The translations under genes and the position numbers were made by a program. Shown here one piece after another: positions 50,431 to 50,468 of a DNA stretch of 64,000 nucleotides. The stretch is from the NCBI RefSeq assembly GCF_030013595.1, contig NZ_CP122768.1. One strand, 5' to 3'. The notes below the pieces were generated by a model that did not search any database, had not been told where the DNA came from, and saw only the letters and a program-made list of their open reading frames with translations. The DNA comes from Escherichia coli (GTDB lineage Bacteria; Pseudomonadota; Gammaproteobacteria; Enterobacterales; Enterobacteriaceae). How positions within the stretch are numbered: the stretch's first letter is position 1; every line of letters begins with the position of its first letter.

Positions 50431-50468
50431 AACTGTCTATGCGTACAGTATAGGATTTTTATACAGTG
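50431..50468 (-). promoter_or_regulatory. two overlapping LexA (SOS) boxes upstream of ydjM
   Basis: Top strand aaCTGTctatgcgtACAGta (50431-50450) and the reverse complement of tataggatttttatacagtg (50449-50468) = CACTGTATAAAAATCCTATA; match the boxes reported for ydjM. Confidence 0.7.

Follow-up and report, generated by a model that had tools for sequence, protein, structure and literature searches.

Lists of the LexA regulon have included the E. coli gene ydjM since 2000, and reviews cite its tandem boxes, so the operator analyzed here carries little weight as a discovery. For E. coli K-12, a passage of PMC4951493, citing Fernandez de Henestrosa 2000, refers to tandem LexA-binding sites that were "experimentally reported" for ydjM, and the sequence CACTGTATAAAAATCCTATA is printed for b1728/ydjM at -52 in PMC4576408, where it is called 'novel' relative to RegPrecise, which reportedly contains one ydjM site only. 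In Salmonella, two SOS boxes are located 14 and 32 bp from the ydjM ATG, with HI values of 9.12 and 12.85 (PMC8072944, Table 1). At the level of expression, E. coli ydjM is upregulated 2.5-fold by AZT and is 8.6-fold lower in lexA3 (PMC11228462), a log2 change of up to 2.6 was recorded in a time course (PMC11002266), and the gene is among the listed SOS genes of PMC6590174. The HI given for ydjM, 9.0, is below the cut-off of HI<14 by which the loci of Table 1 in PMC11228462 were selected. In Salmonella, ydjM is induced 2.1-fold by nalidixic acid, and a ydjM::gfp fusion produced no fluorescence (PMC8072944).

Several other tandem LexA operators are available for comparison. The double SOS operators of colicin genes, such as that of ColE1 cea, pair a strong and a weak site that overlap at their terminal positions, and a passage of PMC4951493, citing Gillor 2008, reports cooperative LexA binding for operators of this kind. 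The autoregulatory operator of lexA consists of two adjacent LexA boxes in one promoter, while recN has three boxes, two of which (boxes 2 and 3) form a closely spaced pair. The sequences of the compared operators were checked against public records, and the offset between neighboring boxes is 21 bp at lexA, 22 and 18 bp at recN, 15 bp at ColE1 cea, and 18 bp at ydjM.

The stretch of DNA that was analyzed (the window) is 64,000 nt long. A 401-bp stretch around the ydjM operator matches 5,423 of 5,426 complete E. coli genomes with 95-99.8% identity, annotated as ydjM and hxpB; the window is E. coli chromosome and the regulated gene is ydjM. The genes ydjO, tcyP (ydjN), ydjM, hxpB (yniC), yniB, and yniA follow one another in the closest genome, and RefSeq annotates a 196-aa ydjM at the same position in the best-matching E. 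coli genome. The features of the operator region are listed below.

ydjM coding sequence, 49826..50416, minus strand: 196 aa plus stop, with the ATG at 50416, taken from the ORF list and the RefSeq annotation of the homologous locus
LexA box 1 (proximal), TACTGTACGCATAGACAGTT, 50450 to 50431, minus strand: full palindrome CTGT-N8-ACAG
LexA box 2 (distal), CACTGTATAAAAATCCTATA, 50468 to 50449, minus strand: consensus outer half-site CTGTAT and a degenerate inner half, with CCTA replacing ACAG/CCAG
Terminator-like hairpin, 50546..50577, minus strand: directly after the hxpB (yniC) stop, with a 14-bp stem, 8 GC pairs and a weak T tract

The gene-strand order upstream of ydjM is ...GTG CACTGTATAAAAATCCTATA CTGTACGCATAGACAGTT TAGTGAGTTTTATC ATG. 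Sharing 2 bp (TA at 50449-50450), the two 20-mers are offset by 18 bp and together cover 38 bp, with their 16-bp cores 2 bp apart. There are 14 nt between the end of box 1 and the ydjM ATG at 50416, and for box 2 the distance is 32 nt. The initial annotation had placed two boxes overlapping by 2 bp at 50431-50468, directly upstream of ydjM, and the sequence agrees with this exactly; the perfect CTGT-N8-ACAG that it described is also present (plus strand, 50433-50448: CTGTCTATGCGTACAG) and is the sole one in the 64,000-nt window. Judged against the LexA core CTGT-N8-ACAG, in which CTGG/CCAG are tolerated (full 20-mer TACTG(TA)5CAGTA), box 1 is perfect, whereas box 2 has the left half only, CTGT...CCTA. 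Box 2 is effectively one good half-site beside a degenerate half. LexA boxes are typically situated within the promoter of the gene that they control or overlap it, and this pair is found inside an intergenic region, the 162 bp between ydjM and hxpB, with promoter elements that are themselves putative. hxpB lies upstream of ydjM on the same strand, and the hairpin that follows it separates ydjM from this upstream gene. A comparison of the hxpB-ydjM spacer with Rfam found no known RNA family.

Compared with the published operator of E. coli K-12 ydjM (b1728), to the extent that its sources describe it, the operator in the window belongs to the same gene, has the same position and the same two boxes, with an identical box 2, and has a similar HI of about 9. 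The ydjM locus of Salmonella enterica has the same two-box arrangement with the same 18-bp offset (loci L031 and L048; PMC8072944), but its proximal box is nearer to the consensus (19.1 bits in our scan, published HI 9.12) and its distal box starts with T rather than C. The initial annotation had equated the pair with the known double LexA operator of ydjM, and the printed sequence of box 2, the Salmonella geometry, and the report of tandem sites in the PMC4951493 passage all agree with that assignment. We estimate a probability of roughly 90% that the feature is the already known ydjM SOS operator, published and ordinary. The useful outcome of the analysis is that a real operator proved recognizable from sequence alone, and it adds three refinements: the description of box 2 as a half-site, conservation at single-base resolution across the Enterobacteriaceae, and the likeness to recN boxes 2 and 3.

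The recN pair is the closest architectural twin of the ydjM pair, closer than the colicin operators. As at ydjM, recN boxes 2 and 3 combine a strong palindrome with a weak, half-degenerate box; the offset is 18 bp, with TA common to both 20-mers, the strong box directly adjoins the degenerate half of the weak one, and the strong box also carries a fused TATACT. In recN, however, the order is mirrored, with the weak box downstream of the strong one, and a third strong box is located 22 bp upstream. The colicin-type combination of a strong and a weak site overlapping at the terminal positions is also found at ydjM, in the form of the 2-bp overlap and the half-degenerate box 2. In contrast, ColE1 cea has a 15-bp offset with 16-bp cores that share one base, compared to 18 bp and cores 2 bp apart at ydjM; the two dimers would therefore be in a different rotational register, and the cooperativity described for colicin operators is not simply transferable. 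The lexA operator resembles ydjM in having two adjacent boxes in one promoter, but its offset is 21 bp (two helical turns), its 20-mers do not overlap, and both of its boxes are complete palindromes. By analogy with recN boxes 2 and 3 and the colicin operators, the cooperative LexA binding at ydjM suggested in the initial annotation is plausible. Contact between the dimers would be consistent with the fixed 18-bp offset, but a promoter's requirement for a 17-bp spacer accounts for that offset just as well, so the fixed spacing is no proof of such contact. The initial annotation had also called the repression tight, and this is not evident from the modest induction that has been published, 2.5-fold by AZT in E. 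coli and 2.1-fold by nalidixic acid in Salmonella. The induction itself, which had been proposed as a check, is documented and LexA-dependent.

To score the boxes, a LexA position weight matrix (PWM) was built from the 18 sites printed in PMC3009722, none of which is from ydjM, and both strands of the 64-kb window were scanned. The highest-ranking site was the operator of cho, as follows.

cho (ydjQ) LexA box, CACTGGATAGATAACCAGCA, 35991-36010, minus strand: 13 nt upstream of the GTG start of the 295-aa Cho ORF (35090-35977, minus strand)

This site scored 21.8 bits (17.9 when left out of training), and its recovery serves as an internal positive control. The scan, which the initial annotation had suggested as a test of its claim, recovered both ydjM boxes at ranks 2 and 3: box 1 at 50431-50450 with 15.6 bits and an HI of 9.2, and box 2 at 50449-50468 with 14.4 bits and an HI of 9.75. 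The next best site in the window reached 10.8 bits, a gap of 3.6 bits below the ydjM boxes. The 18 training sites range from 16.1 to 29.9 bits and from HI 0.3 to 9.3, placing the ydjM boxes at or just past the weak edge, and the computed HI values are in agreement with the 9.0 published for ydjM. A bare CTGT-N8-ACAG is not in itself unusual, with one in the window compared to 0.6 expected and at least one in 46 of 100 shuffles. Shuffling the window 300 times with dinucleotides preserved gave, on average, 0.23 sites of at least 14.3 bits per shuffle and no case (0/300) of two of them within 40 bp of each other. The score of box 2 is split very unevenly, with 13.6 bits from the outer half-site compared to 0.6 bits from the inner one, and half-sites matching the quality of the outer half occur 12 times in the window compared to about 5 expected. 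Box 2 is thus convincing only because of its register beside box 1, its conservation, and the literature.

Conservation was assessed by scanning one genome per species, which yielded 80 loci with YdjM orthologues of 84-99% identity. The genera include Escherichia, Citrobacter, Salmonella, Enterobacter, Leclercia, Lelliottia, Kosakonia, Raoultella, Franconibacter, Atlantibacter, Cedecea, Phytobacter, Trabulsiella, and Yokenella, among others. Box 1 is present in all 80 species loci and both boxes in 77, always at the 18-bp offset; as would be expected of LexA boxes, they are conserved at orthologous loci. The three exceptions concern box 2, which has lost its CTGT in Citrobacter amalonaticus S646 and Intestinirhabdus alba and contains a 1-bp insertion in Leclercia adecarboxylata NCTC13032. 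All three (loci L012, L026, and L060, at about positions 1140-1200) keep box 1 and CCTATACTG, which implies that box 2 is dispensable in some lineages. Box 1 of C. amalonaticus S646, at 22.1 bits, is one of the two strongest among the 80, the other being that of Kosakonia (L069) at 22.2 bits, and its strength may be a compensation for the loss of box 2.

At the level of single bases, CCTATACTG and the ACAG of box 1 show no variation across the 80 distinct upstream sequences. Only the two loss lineages depart from the CTGTA of box 2. Position 1 of box 2 is either T or C, and the N8 center of box 1 is free to vary. The mean pairwise identity of box 2 is 0.91 and that of box 1 is 0.90, compared to 0.44 for 53 four-fold degenerate ydjM sites, not one of which is invariant. 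The alignment of the 80 upstream sequences contains indels between box 1 and the ATG, but none separating the two boxes or lying between box 2 and its upstream block. This pattern of fixed tetranucleotides, a free center, and a variable position 1 fits contacts made by LexA and not a -10 hexamer. In many Enterobacteriaceae other than Escherichia (loci L083-L162, L090), hxpB and ydjM are separated by an SDR-like gene (ending ...DGGWLAR), which places hxpB about 900 bp upstream of the conserved block. Whatever the upstream neighbor, the 85 bp of promoter-operator sequence before the ATG are kept.

A scan of 50300-50700 with the sigma-70 consensus found no promoter at the thresholds used, so the promoter proposals made here derive from inspection and conservation only. 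Two candidates, designated P_A and P_B, were considered.

Candidate -10 of P_B, TATACT, 50452-50447, minus strand: 5/6 match to TATAAT, invariant in the 80 loci, and fused to the first bases of box 1
Candidate weak -35 of P_B, TTCCGT, 50470..50475, minus strand: 17 bp upstream of TATACT, with CTTCCG 80-100% conserved
Alternative -35 of P_A, GTTACA, 50491-50486, minus strand: invariant in the 80 loci and exactly 17 bp upstream of CACTGT

The candidate -10 of P_A is this CACTGT, at 50468-50463, which reads TACTGT in most genera and has a fixed spacing to GTTACA. P_B is most likely the core promoter of ydjM; P_A is less favored because its hexamers are poorer matches and because the first position of its -10 varies between T and C. 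A TAnACT hexamer fused to the start of a LexA box is also found at recN box 2 (TATACTGT), and at cho seven genera conserve a TACACTG at the LexA box.

Together with the LexA binding and induction described in the literature, the sites, statistics, conservation, and spacing obtained here suggest how the operator might work. In undamaged cells, LexA dimers would occupy the two adjacent sites in the 38 bp immediately upstream of ydjM, and we infer that the dimer on the strong box 1 helps to load a dimer on the weak box 2. With the -10 of P_B at the junction of the boxes, box 2 would fill the spacer between -35 and -10 while box 1 would cover the -10 and the start site, and bound LexA would thereby exclude RNA polymerase. 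Whichever of P_A and P_B is the promoter, RNA polymerase would be occluded by bound LexA. Upon DNA damage, RecA-stimulated self-cleavage of LexA would free the promoter, leading to moderate induction of ydjM.

One alternative is that box 1 is the only working operator and that box 2 resembles a LexA site due to core-promoter constraint, either from the spacer and -10 of P_B or from the TACTGT -10 of P_A. GTTACA-N17-(T/C)ACTGT does have sigma-70 geometry and is invariant, but the T/C alternation at position 1 of box 2 would be ill tolerated by a -10 hexamer and is accepted in LexA boxes, and under P_B the CTGTA would belong to the spacer, whose sequence should be unconstrained. Similarly, the inner half of box 2 contributes just 0.6 bits and good half-sites are common in the window, yet on a PWM trained independently of ydjM box 2 scores as high as box 1. 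The three lineages that lack an intact box 2 would be accommodated by a single working box, as would the one ydjM site reportedly held by RegPrecise and the description of box 2 as 'novel' in PMC4576408; against these stand the tandem sites described as experimentally reported in the PMC4951493 passage and the scoring of both boxes in Salmonella (PMC8072944). On balance, we consider it unlikely that box 1 acts on its own.

It could also be argued that the boxes act mainly as a roadblock to read-through from hxpB rather than by occluding a ydjM promoter, given that hxpB lies 162 bp upstream in the same orientation, that its hairpin has a weak T tract, and that the consensus scan found no promoter. 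This appears highly improbable. The 85-bp stretch preceding the ATG is conserved as one unit and is kept even where the SDR-like gene intervenes, which argues for an autonomous promoter-operator, and the invariant TATACT is located at the box junction. As for chance resemblance without function, a single CTGT-N8-ACAG (0.6 expected per window) or a single site of at least 14.3 bits (0.23 per window) would be unremarkable, but a pair was found in 0/300 shuffles, the boxes are conserved far above neutral sites in more than 25 genera, and the LexA dependence of ydjM is published; conservation and expression data already refute this explanation, and its probability is negligible. The known SOS operator of ydjM thus remains the preferred reading.

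None of the 5,426 complete E. coli genomes has the operator allele of this window (50425-50475); the closest agrees at 50 of 51 bases and most agree at 48-49 of 51. Compared to the common form, TACTGTACGTATCGACAGTT, box 1 differs by T10C and C13A, both in the non-contacted center, and T replaces C at 50471, three positions 5' of box 2 and within the candidate -35 TTCCGT. Box 1 of the window allele reaches 15.6 bits, compared to 14.1 bits for the common form, and no functional difference is expected for the window allele. Among B2 strains, a T/C polymorphism in the ydjM LexA site has been described (PMC3444427).

The initial annotation referred to ydjM as a membrane hydrolase-family gene. YdjM is a polytopic inner-membrane protein of the YdjM family, and 'hydrolase' is an annotation name only. 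It has a full-length family match above curated cut-offs, both to Pfam PF04307 (E=2e-35, 122 bits, cut-off 29) and to the NCBIfam equivalog NF008651, 'metal-dependent hydrolase' (374 bits, cut-off 216). A sequence search of the PDB with YdjM detected no solved relative, and an AlphaFold2 model built from a 24-sequence alignment of close orthologues had a mean pLDDT of 41 and a pTM of 0.23, too poor for a fold search. A literature search for YdjM function found no paper assigning one; a paper that apparently gives YdjM an enzymatic activity concerns YjdM, a typographical confusion. In Staphylococcus aureus, a YdjM-family gene is also under LexA control (PMC11442139), which suggests an old association between the YdjM family and the SOS response.

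Conservation extends beyond the boxes into the sequence just upstream of box 2.

Conserved block, AAGAGTTACACCGTCACCACTTCCGTG, 50469..50496, minus strand: 28 bp just upstream of box 2, containing the -35 candidates

Among the 80 species, the mean pairwise identity of this block is 0.88 and 15 of its 28 positions are invariant, compared to an identity of 0.44 at four-fold degenerate sites. The block thus equals the boxes in conservation, but LexA does not account for it, since no LexA PWM match was found within it in the 80 species loci. The block could represent a promoter -35 or upstream elements, or a second regulator may bind there. In a by-eye comparison with consensus sequences for CRP, TyrR, LacI-family, CpxR, sigma-E, and sigma-32, none fit both the spacing and the arms of the block. 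A more speculative reading would join the block to the box pair: the full box with an outer half-site at an 18-bp offset (77/80 species, mirrored at recN boxes 2 and 3) would represent a distinct mode of LexA binding, in which the second dimer is held mainly by protein-protein contact and one half-site, and the block (GTTACAnCGTCACC..CTTCCG) would be the site of a second regulator. We regard this joint proposal as doubtful. If true, a second regulator at the block would link the YdjM membrane protein to a signal other than DNA damage.

A related stretch is present at the other SOS operator of the window. In the nadE-cho spacer, 36039-36066 on the plus strand (CGGGTTGATGACAAAGGTTACACCGTC) has 25 of 28 bases in common with the block consensus of the non-Escherichia ydjM loci. 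The ydjM block of the window has an exact 11-mer in common with this spacer, in inverted orientation and 14.4 kb apart, and the local alignment has a score of 37, compared to a null maximum of 29 in 1000 shuffles. In a metagenome scan, the block motif was detected upstream of ydjM in other genera, upstream of cho in E. coli-like sequences only, and in three chance coding matches. It is absent upstream of cho in Salmonella, Citrobacter, Leclercia, Kosakonia, Enterobacter, and Yokenella. The idea that the block is a conserved SOS regulatory motif of both genes was consequently rejected, since the lack of a copy at cho in these six genera points to an Escherichia-specific copy and not a shared SOS motif; that copy may have arisen by a small duplication. 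The LexA box of cho itself is conserved in the cho loci of other genera.

The nadE-cho spacer contains additional elements. Directly upstream of the ydjM-like 28-bp stretch there is a match to the Rfam sRNA family ES036 (CssrF) at 36085-36127 on the minus strand (44.3 bits, gathering score 37.6), and the spacer also has a REP-like palindrome, TTCACGCCGGATGCGGCGTGAA. In 4 of the 6 other genera examined, the corresponding spacer is much shorter, and the CssrF and REP-like elements are absent in 6 of 6.

Elsewhere in the window, yniA (fructosamine kinase family) is split at about 52391-52396 on the minus strand by a 1-bp deletion in a T run (T6, compared to T7 in strain 2012C-4221), yielding a 261-aa out-of-frame product (ORF 52045-52830) and a 97-aa C-terminal ORF (51971-52264); the split gene is either a pseudogene or a homopolymer sequencing error. 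An Rfam match to RNA-OUT (98.8 bits, 46083-46152, minus strand) adjoins a 402-aa transposase ORF (46145-47353, plus strand), and together these constitute an IS10-like insertion (IS4-family, annotated ISVsa5) between cedA/katE and ydjO, an arrangement shared, over at least 80% of a 4.3-kb query, by only 4 of the 5,426 complete E. coli genomes. Finally, an Rfam Phe_leader match (74.4 bits, 61343-61467, plus strand), unrelated to the ydjM operator, is presumably the pheST attenuator.
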